From contig CAVOIE010000006.1 of the NCBI GenBank assembly GCA_963696055.1, positions 531,431-563,430 of the forward strand: 32,000 nucleotides of DNA. The letters run 5' to 3'. Positions 18,831-27,627 of the stretch are shown one piece after another. Under the pieces are notes generated by a model that was not told the DNA's origin, made no database searches, and saw only the letters and a program-made list of their open reading frames with translations. A program made the translations under genes and the position numbers. The stretch is from an uncultured Actinomycetota bacterium. Lineage in GTDB: Bacteria; Actinomycetota; Actinomycetes; Actinomycetales; Micrococcaceae. Every line of letters starts with the position of its first letter. The stretch's first letter is position 1.

Positions 18831-19187
18831 CTACGGTGCCTGCGGAGCAGCCTCCCCCGATGCCTCGTCGGTGCCGACGTCGGTGGAATCGCGGGTCGTC
18901 GAAGTGCCCGTGGGACGCCCGGACGGCCCCTTGGTCCCGGTGTCCTCCCGGCCAGGCTCCTTGCCGTCCTGCCCGGCCACTTCCTCGCCGCCGCGGGTCA
19001 TGCTCTCGCCGACCCCTTCCGGAGCCATCCTGGCGTCGGCCGGAGTCTCCTCCTGCCCGGGGTGCTCCGGTTCTTTCGCCGGAGGTTCGCTGCCCCAGGC
19101 GCGCGCGGTGCCTTTGTTACCGGTGCCCTCCCCGCCGGTCTCGGGTTCGCGCTGTTCACCGGACACTGACGGTTGTTCCTCGGACAT
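18831..19187 (-). CDS. Small acidic, Gly/Glu/Pro/Thr-rich intrinsically disordered protein (118 aa), last gene of the hydrogenase operon
   Basis: The ATG at 19187 is preceded by a strong GAGGAGG (revcomp of 19191-19197) and lies 47 nt after the hypC stop. The sequence is MSEEQPSVSGEQREPETGGEGTGNKG...DEASGEAAPQAP. It has G/C-rich third positions and no hydrophobic core. The longer ORF-track version (to 19490) overlaps hypC and is rejected. Confidence 0.5.
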   Translation of the reverse strand: MSEEQPSVSGEQREPETGGEGTGNKGTARAWGSEPPAKEPEHPGQEETPADARMAPEGVGESMTRGGEEVAGQDGKEPGREDTGTKGPSGRPTGTSTTRDSTDVGTDEASGEAAPQAP

Positions 19188-19234: not shown

Positions 19235-19492
19235 CTAGGGCAATTCGCCCCCGGATTCCCGCTCTTGCCCCATCAATTCGAGGCCGGTCATCGCCTCCTC
19301 CGCACCCTCTGCGTCCACCCGCTGCAAGGCGAAGCCCATATGGATCAGGATCCAGCTGCCGGCTTCCGGCGGGCCGTCGTCGAGCAGGCCGATGTTGATT
19401 TTCCGCTCCGCCCCGGCAACATCCACGAGGGCGAGCTGGCCGCCGTAACCCTCGACGAGCTCGATGACCCGCCCCGGTATTCCCAGGCACAT
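19235..19492 (-). CDS. hypC: Hydrogenase maturation chaperone HypC/HybG/HupF
   Basis: 85 aa with the invariant N-terminus MCLGIPGRV (Cys2) and a small OB-fold-sized protein. AAGGAGG lies upstream and overlaps the TAA of the protease gene. Confidence 0.93.
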   Translation of the reverse strand: MCLGIPGRVIELVEGYGGQLALVDVAGAERKINIGLLDDGPPEAGSWILIHMGFALQRVDAEGAEEAMTGLELMGQERESGGELP

Positions 19493-19504: not shown

Positions 19505-20047
19505 TTAGCTGCGATGGGAAAGGTTTTCTTCCAAGAGGGTGACGACGGCGGCGATCGCCTTCGGGACGGCGGCCGCCACCGCCGGAGAGAGCCCGATGCC
19601 TTCCGTCGTATCGGCCGGCACGCAGCCAACGACGTAGGTTGGCGGCAGTGTGCCGCCCAGAGAACGTAGCCGGTTCAACACCGCGGCCGGATCCATGCCA
19701 TGTGGATCCAACGGCCCTGCGTCCGCGAGGTCTTCGGCACCGACGCGCAGGATCCGGATGCTGCCCGGTTCTGCATCGGGCGCAGCGGGAGGGACGGTGT
19801 CGACCAGGACCAGCGCTTCCACGCCGGCCAGCAGGTCGTACGCCAGATGCATTCCCCGGATTCCATAGTCGATTACTTGCAGTCCGGGTCGTTGGCCGGC
19901 CCCGGCTGCGGTCAGTCGCTGTGCCACTTCCGGGCCGAAGCCGTCATCGCGCAGGAACATGTTGCCGACGCCGGCCACCAAGGTACGTCCGGTGAAATCC
20001 GCGGCCGTATCACCGGCGGCTGTGCGTGGTTGGTTCCTGGTGTTCAC
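19505..20047 (-). CDS. [NiFe]-hydrogenase maturation endopeptidase (HybD/HupD/HyaD family)
   Basis: TLVAGVGNMFLRDDGFGPEVAQRL...DYGIRGMHLAYDLL...LVLVDTV...DPHGMDP matches the GxGNxxxxDDGxG and Dx(H) motifs of the family. The start is assigned to the GTG at 20047, which overlaps the stop of the upstream micro-ORF (GTGA). The ORF-track extension to 20389 is Arg/Pro-rich and overlaps the upstream gene. Confidence 0.85.
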   Translation of the reverse strand: MNTRNQPRTAAGDTAADFTGRTLVAGVGNMFLRDDGFGPEVAQRLTAAGAGQRPGLQVIDYGIRGMHLAYDLLAGVEALVLVDTVPPAAPDAEPGSIRILRVGAEDLADAGPLDPHGMDPAAVLNRLRSLGGTLPPTYVVGCVPADTTEGIGLSPAVAAAVPKAIAAVVTLLEENLSHRS

Positions 20048-20163
20048 ATCCGGCTCAGCTTCAAGTAGCGCCGGATGTCCGGGAGCGACCGCAGCCCGGC
20101 GTAGAGGAGGCCGAGCGCGACGGCGGAAAGCATGCCGGTGGCCACCATGCCTACTGCTCTCAT
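20044..20163 (-). CDS. 39-aa single-TM micro-protein (not in the ORF track), translationally coupled on both sides
   Basis: Hand translation of the minus strand gives MRAVGMVATGMLSAVALGLLYAGLRSLPDIRRYLKLSRM*. Its ATG (20161-20163) overlaps the TGA of the 482-aa gene (ATGA). Its TGA (20044-20046) overlaps the GTG of the protease (GTGA). It has a hydrophobic helix followed by a basic tail. It fills an otherwise unexplained 113-nt gap in a tightly packed operon. Confidence 0.55.
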   Translation of the reverse strand: MRAVGMVATGMLSAVALGLLYAGLRSLPDIRRYLKLSRM

Positions 20164-21608
20164 GATTGGTTTTCCCTTCCGTGCTGGGTTTCGGACTGTC
20201 CGCCGGACGGGGCAGGATCAAGAGGCTCCAGTTCGTCCGGCGCGTAGTAGAAGGATCGGCCGTAGCCCTCGTGCAGGTCGGCCGCGGGGTCCTCTTCGAA
20301 GACCAGGCCGACGTGCGTGCTGCCGTCGACGTCGAAATGGACGCTGGTGACCCTTGCAGCCTGGCCCGCGAAAAAGAGGTCCTGGGCATCTGCCCGCCGG
20401 CCCGGTTTCACACGTACCCGGCTGCCGCGGGCCACCGTAACGTTTCCGATCAGCACGGCGTCCTCGTCGGGATGCACGCTGGCGTCCGCCGCGGGATCCC
20501 ACCACGGAAGACTCTCGGATCCGCTGCTGCCCCCGGATCCAGCCGCCGGCTCTTCGGTGAGCGTTGGGAAGGCCGGGGCGTGGGGATCGCGCAGGACGCC
20601 GTGCAGCCGCTGCAGTTCCTCGGGTGACATCGCGGCGCAGCGATCGATCACCGCCGCCGCCCGCGGATCGGTGGCCCGTGCCTCCGCCTTTTCCTCTTCC
20701 GTCAGGGTCAGCACCCGGAGGGTGAGGATCTCGTCGATCTCCGTCGAGTCGTACAGCTCCACCGAGCTTTCCGGGGCGACGGCGGGATGGTCGTAGAGGA
20801 TGATGGGCGAGATGAGCAGCACGTCGGTCTGGCCTTCGGGTCCGGCGAGCACCGGCCAGCACCGGTGCTGGGTGCAGGACCGCGCCGCGGCTGCTGCCGC
20901 TTCCGGCGGCTCGAGCAGGGAGAGGAAATCCCCGTCCTGCAGGGTCAGCAGAGCGTGGGTTCCGATGAACGACAAGGCGATGGCGTCCTGCTTGTCTGCG
21001 GCTCCGGGCTCGTCCGCAGCGGGACCGAGGTTCTTCGCGGTGACATGCAGCCGCATCACTCCGTCGTCGTGTGGCGTCGCGGTCAGCCTGACCTCTCCGC
21101 GGAGCCGGCGACGGCGGCGCACCAGCCGCCCCGCAATCTGCCCTACGCTGTCGATGAGCAACTCGCTGTCCCGGCCGGCCTGCACCTCGACCGGCAGCGC
21201 CAGCCCGTCCCCCTGCCCGCCGGCCAGGTCAGCCAGCGCAAACGGACCCAGGGCGATCTCCTGCTCCACGGCTTCGTCCCAGGTCAGCCACCGGTCGGCA
21301 CCCAGCGTGAGCTGCCCGACGGACCTGAACGCCCCGTCGTCGCACTTTTCCTCCACGGTCCGGGTCTGCAGCTGGAGGAAGCGCAGGTGCACCTCCAGCG
21401 CTGCGTTCGGGCCAGCGGTGAGCAGGCAGTCCGCGGACAGGTAGGGTTCCTCACCGAGCCCCGCCGCCGCGGCGCCGGGCGGGCCGAGGATACCGAACTG
21501 CCAGCGTGCCTGGTTCTTCCGGGACGACGCCCGGTACGGGTAGAGCAGGTACCCCTCGTAGAGGACAGCATCGGCGACGGCGCGGGCCAGGCTCAGTCCC
21601 ATGTTCAT
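20160..21608 (-). CDS. Conserved hypothetical protein, 482 aa, hydrogenase-operon encoded
   Basis: Long ORF with coding-like composition (MNMGLSLARAVADAVLYEGYLLYPYRASSRKNQARWQFGILGP...). The ATG at 21608 overlaps the upstream stop (ATGA), and its stop overlaps the downstream micro-ORF start. I can see no recognisable catalytic or cofactor motif. Confidence 0.8.
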   Translation of the reverse strand: MNMGLSLARAVADAVLYEGYLLYPYRASSRKNQARWQFGILGPPGAAAAGLGEEPYLSADCLLTAGPNAALEVHLRFLQLQTRTVEEKCDDGAFRSVGQLTLGADRWLTWDEAVEQEIALGPFALADLAGGQGDGLALPVEVQAGRDSELLIDSVGQIAGRLVRRRRRLRGEVRLTATPHDDGVMRLHVTAKNLGPAADEPGAADKQDAIALSFIGTHALLTLQDGDFLSLLEPPEAAAAAARSCTQHRCWPVLAGPEGQTDVLLISPIILYDHPAVAPESSVELYDSTEIDEILTLRVLTLTEEEKAEARATDPRAAAVIDRCAAMSPEELQRLHGVLRDPHAPAFPTLTEEPAAGSGGSSGSESLPWWDPAADASVHPDEDAVLIGNVTVARGSRVRVKPGRRADAQDLFFAGQAARVTSVHFDVDGSTHVGLVFEEDPAADLHEGYGRSFYYAPDELEPLDPAPSGGQSETQHGRENQS

Positions 21609-22261
21609 TGCGGCGGCTCACCCACAACGTTTGCGGCGGCACCGGCCAGCAGCGCCTCCATGGTTGCCTCCCAAGAGGTGAGCCCCCGGACCGCCTTGAA
21701 GCGGGCCAACGATGCGAGCACCTCGCGGTCCAGCCGGAGCCAGCCGGTGTTGGGGAAGTGCAGGTCCATGAGCCGGCGCCACGCCTCCACCGGCAGCTGA
21801 TAGGAAGCCTCGAGGTCCCACGGCACCTGTTCCACCGTGAACCCGGTCTGGCCTCTGGTGAAGACGGTGCCGGAGAACAGCAGTTCCAGCGGGACCGTGC
21901 CCTCGTGCAGGGCGTTCAGGTACTTGGCCGCCGCCACGTCGAAATCGAAGGTACAGGGTAGCGGCAGATCCACCTCGGTGCTGCCGGTAAACCCCTGGAC
22001 CAGGGCGCTGCACTGCAGCCAGAGGAAGGACTTCAGCGTCGAGGGCCAGCGGCCGCGCTCACCGAAAAGATCCAGCAGCCCCGGTTCCTCGTCCGGGCCA
22101 TAGCCGCGCCGCTGCGGCAGGATGCGGACCTGGCAGCGCAGCGCGATCGCATGGACGACGGCGGCGCTGGACTCGGTCACGCGCAGCCGGGCAGTCAGCT
22201 GGGGAGCCGCCGCGTAGGGCTCGGGCTGGATGTCGAGGACAGTGAAGGACAAGTCGGTCAC
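21605..22261 (-). CDS. Conserved hypothetical protein, 218 aa, hydrogenase-operon encoded
   Basis: ORF 21605..22387(-) trimmed to the GTG at 22261, which overlaps the upstream stop (GTGA at 22258-22261). The sequence is VTDLSFTVLDIQPEPYAAAPQLTARLRVTESS...FSGTVFTRGQTGFTVEQVPWDLEASYQLPVEAWRRLMD. No motif could be assigned. Confidence 0.72.
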   Translation of the reverse strand: MTDLSFTVLDIQPEPYAAAPQLTARLRVTESSAAVVHAIALRCQVRILPQRRGYGPDEEPGLLDLFGERGRWPSTLKSFLWLQCSALVQGFTGSTEVDLPLPCTFDFDVAAAKYLNALHEGTVPLELLFSGTVFTRGQTGFTVEQVPWDLEASYQLPVEAWRRLMDLHFPNTGWLRLDREVLASLARFKAVRGLTSWEATMEALLAGAAANVVGEPPQ

Positions 22262-22914
22262 GGCACATCCTCCGGCCCGGCGCTGCTCCGGTCGTCCTCG
22301 CGCACCGGCCGGCACCGGCCCTGGACCTGGTTGAAGAACATCCGGAGTTGCTCGCGGGACTGCTGTCCGCCGTCGAACCCGCGCCACACACGGCGCAGCT
22401 GGCCCACCAGTTCGTAGCAGGCGTCCACCGGGACCAAGTAGCAGTCCGCCTGGGCCCGTTCGGGTCCCGGACCACGGATCAGCAGCGCCTCGGTATCAGC
22501 GGCGGCAACGGACAGGCTCGGATTGCGCGCCACCACCGCTCCCCACGCCTCCAGCGAAAGTTCGGATTCGGTGGCTCCCGCGGGGCCCGGATAGAAGGCG
22601 ACCGTGCGCTCCAACTTGGAACTGTGGAAGAAGAAGGCCAGGCCTACCGGAATCTCGAGTTCCTCCCACTGGCCCGGGCCGAGCTCGAAGTCGGGGAAGG
22701 AGAGGTAGCGGTCCGGGACGGCGCGGTAGCGGAGCCAGGCGGAGGCGTCCGTGAAGAGCAGGTAGCACGGCCGGCAGGTGCAGAGCATGCCGCGGCTTTC
22801 CACATCGACCACGTGCTGGTGTTGCTCCGCGATGGGCTCGCCGCACATCTCGCAGCGCGCACCGGTCTCGGTCCGCTTGGTGGCCGCGATCTTGCGCAGC
22901 AGCGCAATATCCAT
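22258..22914 (-). CDS. Conserved hypothetical Cys-motif protein, 218 aa (CxxC ... CxCxxC), hydrogenase-operon encoded
   Basis: MDIALLRKIAATKRTETGARCEMCGEPIAEQHQHVVDVESRGMLCTCRPCYLLF... carries five clustered cysteines resembling a zinc-ribbon/rubredoxin-like metal site. The ATG at 22914 lies 1 nt after the TGA of the preceding gene (22916-22918). Confidence 0.8.
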   Translation of the reverse strand: MDIALLRKIAATKRTETGARCEMCGEPIAEQHQHVVDVESRGMLCTCRPCYLLFTDASAWLRYRAVPDRYLSFPDFELGPGQWEELEIPVGLAFFFHSSKLERTVAFYPGPAGATESELSLEAWGAVVARNPSLSVAAADTEALLIRGPGPERAQADCYLVPVDACYELVGQLRRVWRGFDGGQQSREQLRMFFNQVQGRCRPVREDDRSSAGPEDVP

Positions 22915-22915
22915 C

Positions 22916-23851
22916 TCAGCCTCCGTGCCCGGCGGACACCGGGACGGCCACGCACATCACGCCGCCACGGCTGAGCAGGGGCAGCGGATCCAGATGCATG
23001 GCCTTGTCCTCCAGACAGGCACCGGCCTGCCGCACGTCGAAGTGGCTGCGGCAGGACAGGCAACGCAACAGGCCGCCGCCGGCCGGTGCCGCGAGTGCCC
23101 GCTGCAGCGTCGCGCCTTCCAGCGAGCGGGTGCAGCGCGGGCAGTAGTCACGGTAGGCATACACGTCCTGCCCGGTCCGGCAGGCCAGGATGGAATAGCC
23201 GCCGCCGACCAAGAAGCCCGCGACTTCCCCGGGTTCCAGCTCGGCGAGCTGGGGCAGCGGCTCCCACGAGCCTGTTGACTGGTCCCCGGAGCCATCGGGC
23301 TCCCTGTTCAGCCGGACCAGCAGCGCGTCCACGGGTATCACGGCCGGCGAGGCGGCGGCCCTTTCGGCCTCGACAACCTCGATGGCCGCCACTTCCGGGG
23401 CCGCTGTTTCAATCGCTTCCTCCACCGCGTACTTGAGGGTAACGGACGACGACGGGCACCCCTGGCAGGTGCCCAACAAGCGCAGCCGCACCACGCCGTC
23501 GTCGTTGATTTCCAGCAGTTCCACGTCGCCACCGTGCGAGCCAAGGTAGGGGCGGACGCTGTCCAGCGCGGCGGCAACCCTAGTCTGCAGGTCCTGCGGG
23601 TGCAGCCCGTGGATGAGCAGCACGGCGGACACCAGCTCGTCCGCGGTCAGTGCCTGCATCGTGGCGGGATCCAGCACGCCGCGGTCCTTGAGGATTTCCA
23701 GCAGCCGTTCCAGTCCCGCTCCATACAGATCGGCCACCTCGCGGACCAGATCTTCCGCGCGTCCCCGGGCGACGGCGCCGCCGGCCCCGAGCGCGTCCAG
23801 CAGCGTGCCGATGCGGTCACCGATCTGGCGTGGCTGATCCCCGGCTGGCAT
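22916..23851 (-). CDS. hhyE: NifU-like / Rieske-like fusion iron-sulfur protein (HhyE-type putative electron-transfer partner of group 1h hydrogenase)
   Basis: The central NifU C-terminal-type domain reads VRPYLGSHGGDVELLEINDDGVVRLRLLGTCQGCPSSSVTLKYAVEEAI. The C-terminal Rieske-like segment has paired Cys motifs (ACRTGQDVYAYRDYCPRC ... LRCLSCRSHF). It starts 6 nt after the hhyL stop. In mycobacteria, the equivalent gene beside hhyL is known as HhyE. Confidence 0.78.
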   Translation of the reverse strand: MPAGDQPRQIGDRIGTLLDALGAGGAVARGRAEDLVREVADLYGAGLERLLEILKDRGVLDPATMQALTADELVSAVLLIHGLHPQDLQTRVAAALDSVRPYLGSHGGDVELLEINDDGVVRLRLLGTCQGCPSSSVTLKYAVEEAIETAAPEVAAIEVVEAERAAASPAVIPVDALLVRLNREPDGSGDQSTGSWEPLPQLAELEPGEVAGFLVGGGYSILACRTGQDVYAYRDYCPRCTRSLEGATLQRALAAPAGGGLLRCLSCRSHFDVRQAGACLEDKAMHLDPLPLLSRGGVMCVAVPVSAGHGG

Positions 23852-23857
23852 GGCAGT

Positions 23858-25651
23858 TCACTCGCCGGTCATCGTCTGGGTCGGAGAGTGCAGCTTGTCC
23901 AGGGTCTGCCCCTTGCCCAGGTACATGTGGACGCCGCACGGCAGGCAGGGGTCGAAGCTGCGCACCGTGCGCATGATGTCGATCCCCTTGAAATGCTCGC
24001 GGTCGTTCTCCTCGAAGATGGGCTGTCCCTGGACCGCGTCCTCATACGGCCCCGAGATGCCCTGGGAATCCGTCGGGCTAGCGTTCCACGGGGTCGGCGG
24101 GTACGGGTGGTAGTTGGCAATCTTGCCGTCGCGGATCACCATGTGGTGCGACAGCACGCCGCGCACGGCCTCGGTGAAGCCGCAGCTGAAGGCCTCGTCG
24201 GGGACCTCGAAGGTTTCCCAGGTCTTGGTCCGTCCGGCCCGTATCTCTTCGAGCGCCTGCTCGGCAAAGTGCAGCGCGGCCGCGGCGGCGTAGGCCTGGA
24301 AGTACGTGCGGGCCCGGTTGCGCTCCAGCGTGTTGCTCCATTGCGGGGTGTGCCATTCGAAGGAGACCGGCCCCTTCAGCGCGGTCTTGGGCAGGTTGAT
24401 CTGCACGCTGTGGCCGGTGGCCTTGATGTAGCCGATGTCGACCAGCCCTGCCAGCGCCGTCGACCAGAGCCGGGCCAGCGGGCCGCCGCCGGTGTCCAGG
24501 GCGAGGTTGTCCGTGCCGTCGAACCAGCGCGGCGACATCACCCAGCTGTACTTCTCCGCCAAATCGCGCTTCTGCGGCTTCGGGTTGGTGTGCTGGTTCC
24601 ACGGATGACGGCGGTCCACCGGATTGCCCAGCGGATCCCGCGTCACGAACATTTCCTGGTCCTCCCAGTCCTCGTAGTACGAGGAACCGAGCATGATTCG
24701 TATCCCGAGGTTGATCCGCACCAGGTCGGTGGTCACCAGTTTTCCGTCCACCACGACGCCGGGAGTCACGAACATCTTCCGGCCCCAGTCCGTCATGTCC
24801 TTGTACTCGAAATTGCAGAACTCCGGATCCTGGAAGGCACCCCAGCAGCCGAGCAGCGTGCGCCGCAGGCCCACCTGCTCGTAGCCCGGAAGGGCCTCGT
24901 AGAAGAAGTCGAAGAGGTCGTCGTGCATGGGCACAACCTTCTTCATGAACTCGACGTAGCGCATCAGCCGGGTGATGTAGTCGGTCATGAGTTGGATGGT
25001 CGCCACCGTGCCCACGCCACCCGGGTACAGCGTAGACGGGTGGACGTGGCGTCCCTCCATCAGGCAGAACATCTCACGCGTGAGGCGGCTGACCTGCAAA
25101 GCCTCCCGGTAAAACTCGCCGGTGAACGGGTTCAGCGAGCGCATGATGTCCGCGATCGTGCGGTAGCCGTGGTCGGCCTCGTGCGGGGCGCGCGTGTTCT
25201 CCGCCTTCGCCAGTACGCCGGGGTTGGTTTCGGAGACCATCTTCTCGCAGTAGTCCACGCCGACGAGGTTCTCCTGGAAGATGTTGTGATCGAACATGTA
25301 CTCGGCCGCTTCGCCGAGGTTCACGATCCACTCGCCCAGATTCGGCGGCTTCACGCCGTAGGCCATGTTCTGGGCATAGCAGGAGCAGGTGGCATGGTTG
25401 TCGCCGCAGATGCCGCAGATCCGGCTGGTGATGAAGTGGGCGTCGCGGGGATCCTTTCCCTTCATGAACAAGGAGTAGCCGCGGAAGATCGAGGACGTGC
25501 TGCGGCACTCAACAACCTGGTTGTTCTCGAAGTCGATCTTGGTGTAGATGCCGAGGCTGCCGACGATCCGGGTGATGGGGTCCCACGCCATCTCCACAAG
25601 GTTGCTGCCGCCTGTGCTGCTCTGGGAAGGCGTTGGAATTGTGGAGGTCAT
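23858..25651 (-). CDS. hhyL: [NiFe]-hydrogenase large subunit, group 1h/5 (high-affinity, Hhy-type)
   Basis: 597 aa. The N-terminal NiFe-ligand motif is HFITSRICGICGDNHATCS. The C-terminal motif is SFDPCLPCGVH, followed by a 22-aa tail (MYLGKGQTLDKLHSPTQTMTGE) that would be removed by the endopeptidase. The TSRICGICGDNH form of L1 is characteristic of the actinobacterial group 1h/5 enzymes. Confidence 0.95.
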   Translation of the reverse strand: MTSTIPTPSQSSTGGSNLVEMAWDPITRIVGSLGIYTKIDFENNQVVECRSTSSIFRGYSLFMKGKDPRDAHFITSRICGICGDNHATCSCYAQNMAYGVKPPNLGEWIVNLGEAAEYMFDHNIFQENLVGVDYCEKMVSETNPGVLAKAENTRAPHEADHGYRTIADIMRSLNPFTGEFYREALQVSRLTREMFCLMEGRHVHPSTLYPGGVGTVATIQLMTDYITRLMRYVEFMKKVVPMHDDLFDFFYEALPGYEQVGLRRTLLGCWGAFQDPEFCNFEYKDMTDWGRKMFVTPGVVVDGKLVTTDLVRINLGIRIMLGSSYYEDWEDQEMFVTRDPLGNPVDRRHPWNQHTNPKPQKRDLAEKYSWVMSPRWFDGTDNLALDTGGGPLARLWSTALAGLVDIGYIKATGHSVQINLPKTALKGPVSFEWHTPQWSNTLERNRARTYFQAYAAAAALHFAEQALEEIRAGRTKTWETFEVPDEAFSCGFTEAVRGVLSHHMVIRDGKIANYHPYPPTPWNASPTDSQGISGPYEDAVQGQPIFEENDREHFKGIDIMRTVRSFDPCLPCGVHMYLGKGQTLDKLHSPTQTMTGE

Positions 25652-25684: not shown

Positions 25685-26743
25685 TTACCAGGTGCGCCGG
25701 GCACCGGTCAGAAGTTCACGTCCGGGCCGGCGCCACTTGGGTTCCTTGTCCAGCGTGTTGGCCGTGATGCCGCGCAACGCCTTGATGGCCGCACCGTAGG
25801 GGCGGACGGCATTGGTGGACAGCTTGCCGCCGGGCGGCTCGTCCATGAAAGGCATGAACTTGTCCGGGAATCCCGGCATGGTGCATCCGATGCAGATACC
25901 GCCGACGTTGGGGCAGCCGCCCAGACCATTCATCCATCCGCGTTTGGGGACATTGCACTTGACCACGGGGCCCCAGCAGCCGAGTTTGACGATGCACTTG
26001 GGCGACCCGTATTCGGTGGCGAAATCGGCCTGCTCGTAGTAACCGGCGCGGTCGCAGCCTTCATGGACCGTCTTGCCGAACAGCCAGGTGGGGCGCAGCG
26101 ACTCGTCCAACGGAATCGGCGGCGCCTGTCCGGTCGCTTGGTAGAGCAGATACGTGATGGTCTCCGAGAGGTTGTCCGGCTGGATGGGACAGCCCGGGAC
26201 GCAGACGATCGGAATGCCTGCCTTGGATTTCCAGTCGTACCCCAGATAATCGGGCACACCCATGGCACCGGTCGGATTGCCGGCCATCGCATGGATGCCG
26301 CCGTAGGTGGCGCAGGTACCGGCCGCGATGATCGCGGTGGCTTTCGGCGCCAGCCGGTCCAGCCATTCGCTGGTGGTGATCGGCTGTCCGGTCTCCAGAT
26401 CATTGCCGAAGCCGCACCAGTAGCCGCCCGGTTCATGGAGTTGCTCGTTCGGGATGGAGCCCTCGACCACCAGGACGAACGGCTCCAGTTCGCCGCGGTC
26501 CGCCTTGCGGAACCACTCGAGGAAGTCGTCGGCCCCTTCCTGGGGCCCGCACTCAAAGTCGATCAGCGGCCAGTGCATTGCGATCCTGGGCAAGCCGGGC
26601 AGCGCGCCGAGCGCGATCTCCTCGACGCTGGGCTGGGTGGCCGCCGTCAGCGCGACCGAATCTCCGTCGCAACTGAGCCCCGCGTTGATCCACAGCACGT
26701 GGATGAGGGCTTCTTCGGCCTGTAAGGAAGTTTCGGTAGGCAT
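25685..26743 (-). CDS. hhyS: [NiFe]-hydrogenase small subunit, group 1h/5, no Tat signal
   Basis: ORF 25685..26839(-) trimmed to the ATG at 26743, which is preceded by GGAGG. MPTETSLQAEEALIHVLWINAGLSCDGDSVALT runs straight into the conserved small-subunit core without an RRxF leader, as expected for group 1h. It has multiple Cys ligands (GTCATYGG, CVPGCP, GCDRAGYY, CIVKLGCWGP, CPNVGGICIGCTMP). Confidence 0.93.
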   Translation of the reverse strand: MPTETSLQAEEALIHVLWINAGLSCDGDSVALTAATQPSVEEIALGALPGLPRIAMHWPLIDFECGPQEGADDFLEWFRKADRGELEPFVLVVEGSIPNEQLHEPGGYWCGFGNDLETGQPITTSEWLDRLAPKATAIIAAGTCATYGGIHAMAGNPTGAMGVPDYLGYDWKSKAGIPIVCVPGCPIQPDNLSETITYLLYQATGQAPPIPLDESLRPTWLFGKTVHEGCDRAGYYEQADFATEYGSPKCIVKLGCWGPVVKCNVPKRGWMNGLGGCPNVGGICIGCTMPGFPDKFMPFMDEPPGGKLSTNAVRPYGAAIKALRGITANTLDKEPKWRRPGRELLTGARRTW

Positions 26744-26772
26744 CGGTGCCTCCTTCAGAGCCCTTGAAGGAC

Positions 26773-27627
26773 TCAGTGAGCGTCGGTAGTCAGTGACCCG
26801 GTCAGGGTTTCCGGCTCGGGTGAGTCGCCTTCGAGCCACTCATACCAGCGGGGCAGCCCCTCGCCGGTGGTGGCCGAAACGACCAGGAATTCGGTCCGCG
26901 GATTAATCTGGCGGATGCGCTCCAGGCACGCGTTGGTGTCGAATTCCACGTAGGGCAGCAAGTCCGACTTATTGACGATCACCAAGTCGGCCGCCCTGAA
27001 CATGTGCGGGTACTTCTGGGGTTTATCATCACCTTCCGTCACCGAAATGATCACCACTTTGGCGGCTTCGCCGAGGTCGAAGAGCGCCGGACAGACCAGG
27101 TTGCCGACGTTCTCGATGAACACCGTCGAATCTGTGGCTGGGTCCAGAGCATCGAGTCCTCGGCGGAGCATGTCGGCATCGAGGTGGCAGCCGGCCCCCG
27201 TGTTGATCTGGATGACTGGCCGTCCCAGCGCGCGGATGCGGTCGGCATCCAGCGACGTTTCCTGGTCGCCTTCGATAACGCCTGCCTGCAGCCGGTCGCC
27301 GAGTTCCTGAAGCGTGCGGACCAGCAGCGTGGTCTTGCCGGCGCCGGGCGAGCTCATCACGTTGAGGGCGCGGATGCTCCGGCCCTCCAGCCAGCCGCGG
27401 TTCCGGGCGGCCAACAGGTCGTTTTTGGCGAGCAGATCCTGCTCAAGCACTATGGTTTGCGGGCCGCTGGCGGCATGCCCGTGGTCGTGTCCGTGGTCGT
27501 GCTCGTGTTCATGTGCATGATCATGGGGATGGCTGTGGGGATGTGGATGGTCGTGGCCGGCCGGCGCAATCTCGACGCCGGACACCCGCGTGTTTTCGGC
27601 GTCTCCACAGCCACAGGTAGTGCACAT
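26773..27627 (-). CDS. hypB: Hydrogenase nickel-incorporation GTPase HypB with His-rich tract
   Basis: The N-terminal high-affinity metal motif is MCTTCGCG. A perfect alternating tract HDHPHPHSHPHDHAHEHEHDHGHDHGH follows. It has the P-loop MSSPGAGKTTLL and a G3E-family GTPase body. The ATG at 27627 abuts the hypA TAG (27628-27630). Confidence 0.95.
   Translation of the reverse strand: MCTTCGCGDAENTRVSGVEIAPAGHDHPHPHSHPHDHAHEHEHDHGHDHGHAASGPQTIVLEQDLLAKNDLLAARNRGWLEGRSIRALNVMSSPGAGKTTLLVRTLQELGDRLQAGVIEGDQETSLDADRIRALGRPVIQINTGAGCHLDADMLRRGLDALDPATDSTVFIENVGNLVCPALFDLGEAAKVVIISVTEGDDKPQKYPHMFRAADLVIVNKSDLLPYVEFDTNACLERIRQINPRTEFLVVSATTGEGLPRWYEWLEGDSPEPETLTGSLTTDAH

Follow-up and report, generated by a model that had tools for sequence, protein, structure and literature searches.

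Organization of the Hydrogenase Cluster

The window analyzed here, a stretch of 32,000 nucleotides from an uncultured Actinomycetota bacterium, carries a minus-strand group 1h [NiFe]-hydrogenase operon with the gene order hhyS-hhyL-HhyE-DUF5947-DUF6084-482-aa gene-micro-ORF-protease-hypC. The genes on either side of the micro-ORF are the following.

25685..26839, minus strand: HhyS small subunit (PF14720 and PF01058); start probably M32
23858..25651, minus strand: HhyL, the group 1h large subunit (PF00374)
21605..23851, minus strand: accessory genes for HhyE (NifU-like, 22916-23851), DUF5947 and DUF6084, identified by Pfam and lying between hhyL and the 482-aa gene
20160..21608, minus strand: 482-aa Hhy accessory protein without a match to any Pfam or NCBIfam family, with 509 relatives in genome contigs
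19505..20047, minus strand: hydrogenase maturation endopeptidase with a GTG start (PF01750 and TIGR00072, E 4e-32, match from residue 23)
19235..19492, minus strand: hypC (MCLGIPG...), from the ORF list

The translation of HhyS contains neither a Tat signal nor a C-terminal membrane helix, and the Hhy enzyme is therefore cytoplasmic. The best solved relative of HhyL, and the only one from group 1h, is HofG of the Cupriavidus necator 'actinobacterial' hydrogenase (AH; PDB 5AA5), with a score of 1069.7 bits. HhyL carries a C-terminal extension after ...DPCLPCGVH, so that the protein ends with ...CGVH followed by MYLGKGQTLDKLHSPTQTMTGE. The idea that the tail of the micro-protein mimics this protease-removed extension was dropped, as the two show no resemblance. 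For DUF6084, the longest ORF (21605-22387, minus strand, 260 aa, GTG start) overlaps DUF5947 by 130 nt. As the Pfam match begins at residue 44, the true start probably lies near 22261, which would yield about 218 aa and an ATGA-type junction.

The 482-aa protein had no relative in a profile search of PDB sequences. Its AF2 model (pLDDT 75.9) begins with an N-terminal helix and a large beta-sandwich (residues 56-270); a helical bundle follows at 290-340, and a disordered linker leads to a C-terminal SH3-like barrel. The barrel resembles the cytochrome b6f subunit PetP (7r0w_V, TM 0.77 on target). Otherwise the fold search returned very low TM-scores, no convincing analogue and nothing firm on a peptide-binding site.

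An acidic disordered protein is encoded after the micro-ORF in several clusters from Nocardioidaceae, Streptomyces and Nocardia (loci L083, L085, L093, L097, L099, L100, L104 and L108). Its conserved stretch is EEPQxERGxPGSRDTGSDEPxGGPxDRPAGT, and a related stretch, GKEPGREDTGTKGPSGRPTGTS, occurs in the terminal acidic ORF of the window (18831-19187, minus strand). The acidic protein appears to be a further conserved hhy accessory product, encoded at varying positions in the cluster.

The Micro-ORF and Its Junctions

The short ORF between the 482-aa gene and the protease gene has the following features.

20174..20180, minus strand: Shine-Dalgarno-like GGAAGGG, 10 nt before the micro-ORF ATG and within the 3' end of the 482-aa gene; read from the sequence
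20044..20163, minus strand: DUF6893 micro-protein gene, 39 codons plus TGA; based on the ORF list, translation, Pfam PF21833 and comparative data
20092..20157, minus strand: predicted transmembrane helix, codons 3-24 (AVGMVATGMLSAVALGLLYAGL); Kyte-Doolittle and AF2
20047..20091, minus strand: conserved cationic tail, codons 25-39 (RSLPDIRRYLKLSRM), net charge +4, with invariant R32, Y33 and M39; alignments A1 and A3

Translation of 20044..20163 on the minus strand from its ATG yields a peptide of 39 aa, MRAVGMVATGMLSAVALGLLYAGLRSLPDIRRYLKLSRM. The ATG (20163-20161) overlaps the TGA (20162-20160) of the 482-aa ORF (20160-21608) in an ATGA junction. At the other end, the TGA of the micro-ORF (20046-20044) overlaps a GTG (20047-20045) in a GTGA junction, and this GTG is the start of the 180-aa HycI-type protease, which extends to 19505. 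An earlier note on this DNA had described the same ORF and peptide, with which the ORF list and translation agree exactly, and both of the overlaps that it proposed were confirmed from the coordinates. Orthologues have GGAAAGGAA or GAGAGGAG at the position of the GGAAGGG site, and nearly all copies of the micro-ORF possess a Shine-Dalgarno site of their own. As read from its junctions, the micro-ORF is translationally coupled here to both the 482-aa gene and the protease.

Evidence for a Protein-Coding Gene

Short open frames are common in G+C-rich DNA, and one of 39 codons is unremarkable by itself. In this genome the protease frame is also open upstream to 20389. Both features favor the view that the micro-ORF encodes no functional protein and is instead a chance frame, a coupling spacer for the protease, or the 5' end of a longer protease. 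Comparative data speak strongly against each of these forms.

The peptide matches the Pfam family PF21833 (DUF6893) with 41.8 bits (E 1.1e-10) over profile positions 2-32 of 32; the gathering threshold is 24.6 bits. The same ORF scored 39.9 bits in a six-frame search of the genome with the DUF6893 model. An unbiased sample of 80 hhy clusters was chosen by the 482-aa protein alone from among its 509 relatives in genome contigs. The nearest relatives, from Arthrobacter sulfonylureivorans and Arthrobacter sp. NPDC089319, show 92-93% identity. A micro-ORF on the same strand follows the 482-aa gene directly in 79 of the 80 clusters and the 80th contig ends there, so that all 79 testable orthologous clusters contain it. 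The earlier note had called for such a comparison, and both the frame and the PDIRRY-like tail prove to be conserved.

Conservation acts on the amino acid sequence. The peptide has exactly 39 codons in 75 copies, among which G5, P28, D29, R32, Y33 and M39 are invariant. A per-codon table of these 75 copies reveals synonymous codon variation at the invariant positions, including P28, D29, R32 and Y33. M1, R32, Y33 and the C-terminal Met are invariant in all alignment sets, with M39 checked in sets of 28, 55 and 75 sequences, and the invariance of R32, Y33 and M39 extends across phyla. Within the frame pN/pS is 0.53 (0.68 in the helix and 0.31 in the tail), as compared with 0.99 and 1.24 in the other two frames; the earlier note had suggested looking for synonymous-only substitutions, and the bias toward synonymous change is strongest in the tail. 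The terminal Met is retained ahead of TGA, TAG and TAA alike. Since any of the three stop codons may come next, this Met belongs to the protein itself and does not stem from an overlapping start codon.

The genomic context is equally stable. The DUF6893 family was found in 37 of 401 genomes from this phylum that were searched in six frames, and all 30 loci fetched have the micro-ORF beside a 482-aa homologue and the protease. The order is either 482-micro-protease, as in the window, or 482-protease-micro; the micro-ORF is therefore not an artefact of the 5' end of the protease. Conservation of the peptide at the amino acid level spans three bacterial classes as well as both gene orders.

The start of the protease bears on the same question. 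Orthologous proteases open with the same GTG, within ATGTGA, or with an ATG a few nucleotides later. Where it runs over the micro-ORF, the protease frame has a pN/pS of 1.24, which indicates no coding constraint, and a stop within the micro-ORF interrupts it in 27 of 68 orthologous clusters. Protease family models match only from residue 23 of the 180-aa form. Given the 27 closed frames and the position of the model match, the protease does not start upstream of 20047; an upstream start, which the earlier note had named among the findings that would count against its proposal, was checked and is not what the data indicate. In this genome the protease frame remains open for 114 codons above the GTG, producing a spurious ORF of 294 aa (19505-20389, minus strand) that a gene caller could choose, thereby masking the micro-ORF.

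Together, the Pfam match, the presence in 79 of 79 clusters and the frame-specific pattern of substitution are, on comparative grounds, far beyond chance. The ORF is almost certainly a translated gene for a 39-residue member of DUF6893, which specifically accompanies group 1h (Hhy/AH-type) [NiFe]-hydrogenase clusters. With a sequence conserved over three classes and two gene orders, synonymous variation at invariant codons, off-frame pN/pS values of about 1.0-1.2 and a ribosome-binding site for nearly every copy, the absence of a functional protein is a scarcely credible alternative that the comparative data effectively refute.

Membership in the DUF6893 Family

The micro-protein had been presented as unannotated, which is correct for this genome: the exact 39-aa peptide was not found in a collection of 15 billion proteins. 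It does not extend to sister Arthrobacter species, whose orthologues are annotated by RefSeq, and the copy described here is 90% identical to that of its nearest sequenced relatives. Nor is the micro-protein novel. The family is recorded as DUF6893 in Pfam, as 'DUF6893 family small protein' in RefSeq, and as PHG071 on the C. necator plasmid pHG1, so the missing annotation is a local omission and not the sign of a new family. RefSeq applies the name in Arthrobacter, Mycobacterium and Mycolicibacterium, with members such as WP_422387498.1 (A. sulfonylureivorans), WP_085929192.1 (A. globiformis) and WP_095794469.1 (Mycobacterium avium).

Searched with the profile, 1.84 billion cluster representatives yielded at least 2000 matches (50%-identity clusters), nearly all of 32-39 aa, and the matches in this library end at the last residue of their proteins. 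The peptide of the window shares these traits. It has 39 aa (the family has about 32-40), its match runs to the C-terminus, its final residue is Met, and the tail motif P/S-D/E-x-x-R-Y appears as P28-D29-I-R-R32-Y33. It also lies in a hydrogenase cluster beside the 482-aa gene and protease, an empirical trait that is not part of the Pfam definition. The PF21833 and RefSeq members resemble it in HMM score, length, the motif P-D-x-x-R-Y...M-stop and position by the 482-aa gene and group 1h protease, and no difference in kind was seen. By these sequence traits, the peptide is a new member of a catalogued family. One 74-aa protein (P0033) contains two DUF6893-like units in tandem, with the ends ...RYLKMREM and ...RRYVNMRRL, and may represent a duplication or read-through.

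Copies are also found in Proteobacteria. An HMM built from alignment A1 was used to scan the gaps adjoining the protease, and this located a copy between the protease and hypF on pHG1 of C. necator H16, recorded as hypothetical protein PHG071 (AAP85824.1 / WP_011153993.1), as well as another on a plasmid of Methylocystis parvus, where it sits between the protease and hypC. A tblastn search of plasmids with the peptide gave insignificant matches only. In Mycobacterium smegmatis, MSMEG_2714 ('hypothetical protein'), between the protease MSMEG_2713 and MSMEG_2715, is a candidate copy by position and label only. No mention of DUF6893 or PHG071 was found in the literature searched. A profile search of PDB chains with DUF6893 had a best E of 0.33, and none of the chains came from a hydrogenase.

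Distribution and a Lineage Without the Gene

Among the 401 Actinomycetota genomes, DUF6084, a marker of the hhy cluster, occurs in 45 and DUF6893 in 37, with both present in 33. One further genome has a weak copy of DUF6893 detected by the dedicated HMM, which raises the number with both to 34. Four genomes have DUF6893 only. Two of them are accounted for by sub-threshold or spurious matches in long frames and a third by a decayed cluster, and in the remaining one the order is protease-micro-HypF, with the other hhy genes not nearby. The decayed cluster (L126, G243:C1:2940000-2953000), in a mycobacterium-like genome, contains NicO, HypB, a remnant of the 482-aa gene, an intact DUF6893, the protease and HypF, and has lost the structural genes.

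The twelve genomes with DUF6084 only consist of the one with the weak copy, two whose contigs end too early, one with a truncated cluster, and eight with complete clusters (G018, G045, G092, G158, G210, G236, G252 and G380; loci L115-L125 and L128-L131). The sampled Actinomycetota have about 42 group 1h clusters that could be tested; these eight among them encode HhyS, HhyL, HhyE, DUF5947, DUF6084, a shorter homologue of the 482-aa protein and the protease. In them hypA-hypB follow directly after the protease with no small hydrophobic ORF there, and whole-genome searches of five of the eight found no copy anywhere. By this distribution, the gene belongs to group 1h clusters only, but some of these clusters lack it. 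Those that have it always carry it at their maturation end, adjacent to the protease, hypC or hypF.

The DUF6893-free lineage differs in its proteins as well. HhyL identity is 63-66% in this lineage versus 75-76%, and its 482-aa protein is missing two blocks, at approximately residues 84-110 and 147-175 of the protein in the window. Indels that track the presence of the peptide were sought in HhyS, HhyL, HhyE and DUF5947 and none were found; the 482-aa protein alone has them. This co-variation is weak evidence for a connection, because HhyL is also more divergent there and the pattern may reflect one deep split between lineages.

Peptide Anatomy and Predicted Topology

One hydrophobic helix and a basic tail with a PDIRRY motif had been proposed from the sequence of the peptide, and hydropathy and alignments bear this out. 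The helix has a 19-residue Kyte-Doolittle maximum of 1.83, and the uncharged run averages about 22 residues in the 79 orthologues, ranging from 18 to 26 in Arthrobacter-type members. Some distant family members have just 12-14 uncharged residues flanked on each side by Arg or Lys, a short length for crossing a bilayer. An AF2 model from 55 sequences (mean pLDDT 90) has a helix at residues 2-25 (pLDDT 94-98), a break at S26-P28 and a second helix at 27-38. The peptide contains no His or Cys.

Across the 79 orthologues, the charge is about +0.9 on the N-terminal side of the helix versus +3.9 on the C-terminal side, and because of this bias an N-out, C-in topology is predicted under the positive-inside rule. 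The peptide is accordingly predicted to form a single membrane helix with its conserved cationic tail in the cytoplasm. The tail is the main target of selection, as the pN/pS values given above indicate, which suggests a specific protein contact and not lipid binding alone.

Possible Roles of the Peptide

Papers from 2014 to 2020 describe the group 1h enzyme as firmly membrane-bound, with subunits that lack a membrane segment, and membrane association seems to matter for high affinity. The M. smegmatis Hhy occurs in the membrane fraction only, resists extraction with 5% cholate and lacks any predicted transmembrane region; its structural operon is given as MSMEG_2722-2718. No cytochrome b gene was found in the hhy operon. 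Methylacidiphilum presents the same membrane puzzle, and there membrane association goes with higher affinity. AH of C. necator is described as cytoplasmic. The premise of the earlier note, that group 1h hydrogenases have no obvious membrane anchor, agrees with this literature, in which Hhy is membrane-bound and HhyS and HhyL have no transmembrane segment.

The most economical reading of these observations is a single-pass peptide with a tail that tethers some cytoplasmic part of the Hhy system to the membrane. Residues 3-24 would form a single membrane-spanning helix with the short N-terminus facing outward. Beyond a kink at S26-P28, the tail, R-S-x-P-D-I-x-R-Y-L-K-x-R-x-M-COOH, would form a short helix on the cytoplasmic side of the membrane. 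There it may serve as a docking motif that holds the enzyme, HhyE or the 482-aa accessory protein at the membrane. The peptide would thus provide in trans what other uptake hydrogenases have as a C-terminal helix of the small subunit or as a cytochrome b. The gene, its family, its hydrogenase-specific setting and its conservation pattern are demonstrated; insertion, topology, partner and anchoring role are inferred, and the proposal as a whole is put forward as plausible but tentative. The membrane-tether idea is nonetheless reasonable and, in the literature searched, unpublished. A stronger version is conceivable, if rather doubtful: DUF6893 would be the missing anchor of group 1h, and docking of the Hhy complex through the cytoplasmic R-Y...M tail would contribute to the high apparent H2 affinity, which is observed in membrane-associated preparations only.

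Several observations count against an anchor. A sub-lineage of group 1h has no DUF6893, C. necator possesses PHG071 even though AH is reported as cytoplasmic, the uncharged stretch falls to 12-14 residues in distant members, and the gene is situated among maturation genes. The last of these points to a maturation or assembly factor, absent from the finished enzyme, that would place or time a late step of Hhy biogenesis at the membrane. Candidate steps are C-terminal processing of HhyL by the adjacent protease and the action of the 482-aa, DUF6084 or DUF5947 proteins. The gene always adjoins the maturation protease, on either side, and hypC or hypF, and it is coupled here to the 482-aa gene and the protease. 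The decayed mycobacterial cluster has kept DUF6893 with the protease and hypF after losing its structural genes, the DUF6893-free sub-lineage has a shortened and more divergent 482-aa protein, and the region of interest in M. smegmatis lies outside the structural operon. However, gene order alone is weak evidence, and the co-variation with the 482-aa protein may again be a single deep split. In the Hyp pathway, [NiFe] maturation as known takes place in the cytoplasm without membrane factors. A maturation role also leaves the cross-phylum conservation of the tail unexplained, except by binding to one of these proteins. Such a factor is the main alternative to an anchor, possible but rather less likely.

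The short uncharged stretches flanked by Arg or Lys, together with the cytoplasmic location reported for AH, would also fit a small subunit whose helix is buried in a soluble Hhy or accessory complex and never spans the bilayer. This is improbable. Arthrobacter-type members have uncharged runs of 18-26 residues, hydropathy above the usual threshold for transmembrane segments and a clear positive-inside bias. The helix is poorly conserved (pN/pS 0.68), which is typical of lipid-facing rather than buried helices. Moreover, the entry for the AH structure, 5AA5, names HofG as its large subunit, and the DUF6893 profile has no match among PDB chains.

Relation to Known Anchors and Small Membrane Proteins

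The docking role proposed here for the single-pass peptide, that of holding an uptake hydrogenase at the membrane, is shared with the C-terminal helix of Escherichia coli HyaA and HybO and with the cytochrome b anchors HyaC and HoxZ. These known anchors act in cis or are four-helix heme proteins that also carry electrons, whereas DUF6893 is a separate 39-aa peptide, and it cannot carry electrons because it has no His or Cys ligands. An anchor of the HyaC/HoxZ type has four helices and heme-ligating His; the peptide has one helix and no His, and no such Pfam match was obtained. The enzymes served by HyaA/HybO and HyaC/HoxZ face the periplasm, whereas Hhy is cytoplasmic, and their anchors have no sequence relation to DUF6893.

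Small operon-encoded membrane peptides are known from other complexes. CydX of cytochrome bd, KdpF, and PetG, PetL, PetM and PetN of cytochrome b6f have 30-40 aa and one helix, are encoded in the operon of their complex and have often been overlooked. DUF6893 is similar to them in size, in its single helix and in being operon-encoded, and has no sequence similarity to them. They differ in their partners: CydX, KdpF and the Pet peptides pack on integral membrane subunits, whereas the hhy cluster encodes no integral membrane partner.

Much of the atmospheric H2 that organisms take up is attributed to group 1h hydrogenases. Another oxidizer of atmospheric H2 without a classical anchor is the group 2a hydrogenase Huc of M. 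smegmatis, in which the HucM stalk is likewise an accessory protein that explains membrane association (PMC10017518). HucM is much larger, forms a lipid-extracting tube and is unrelated in sequence to DUF6893. When the DUF6893 profile was compared with the PDB, no chain of the Huc structures matched even at E values up to 10.

If DUF6893 were indeed the missing anchor, enzymes that lack it after purification, for example C. necator AH, would act as soluble forms of lower affinity, and the DUF6893-free sub-lineage would use another attachment or be soluble. A predicted single-helix peptide in most group 1h clusters, in Actinomycetota as well as Alpha- and Betaproteobacteria, offers a concrete hypothesis that can be tested cheaply. 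Should the anchor idea be wrong, the peptide would still be a conserved, unstudied accessory factor of group 1h enzymes.
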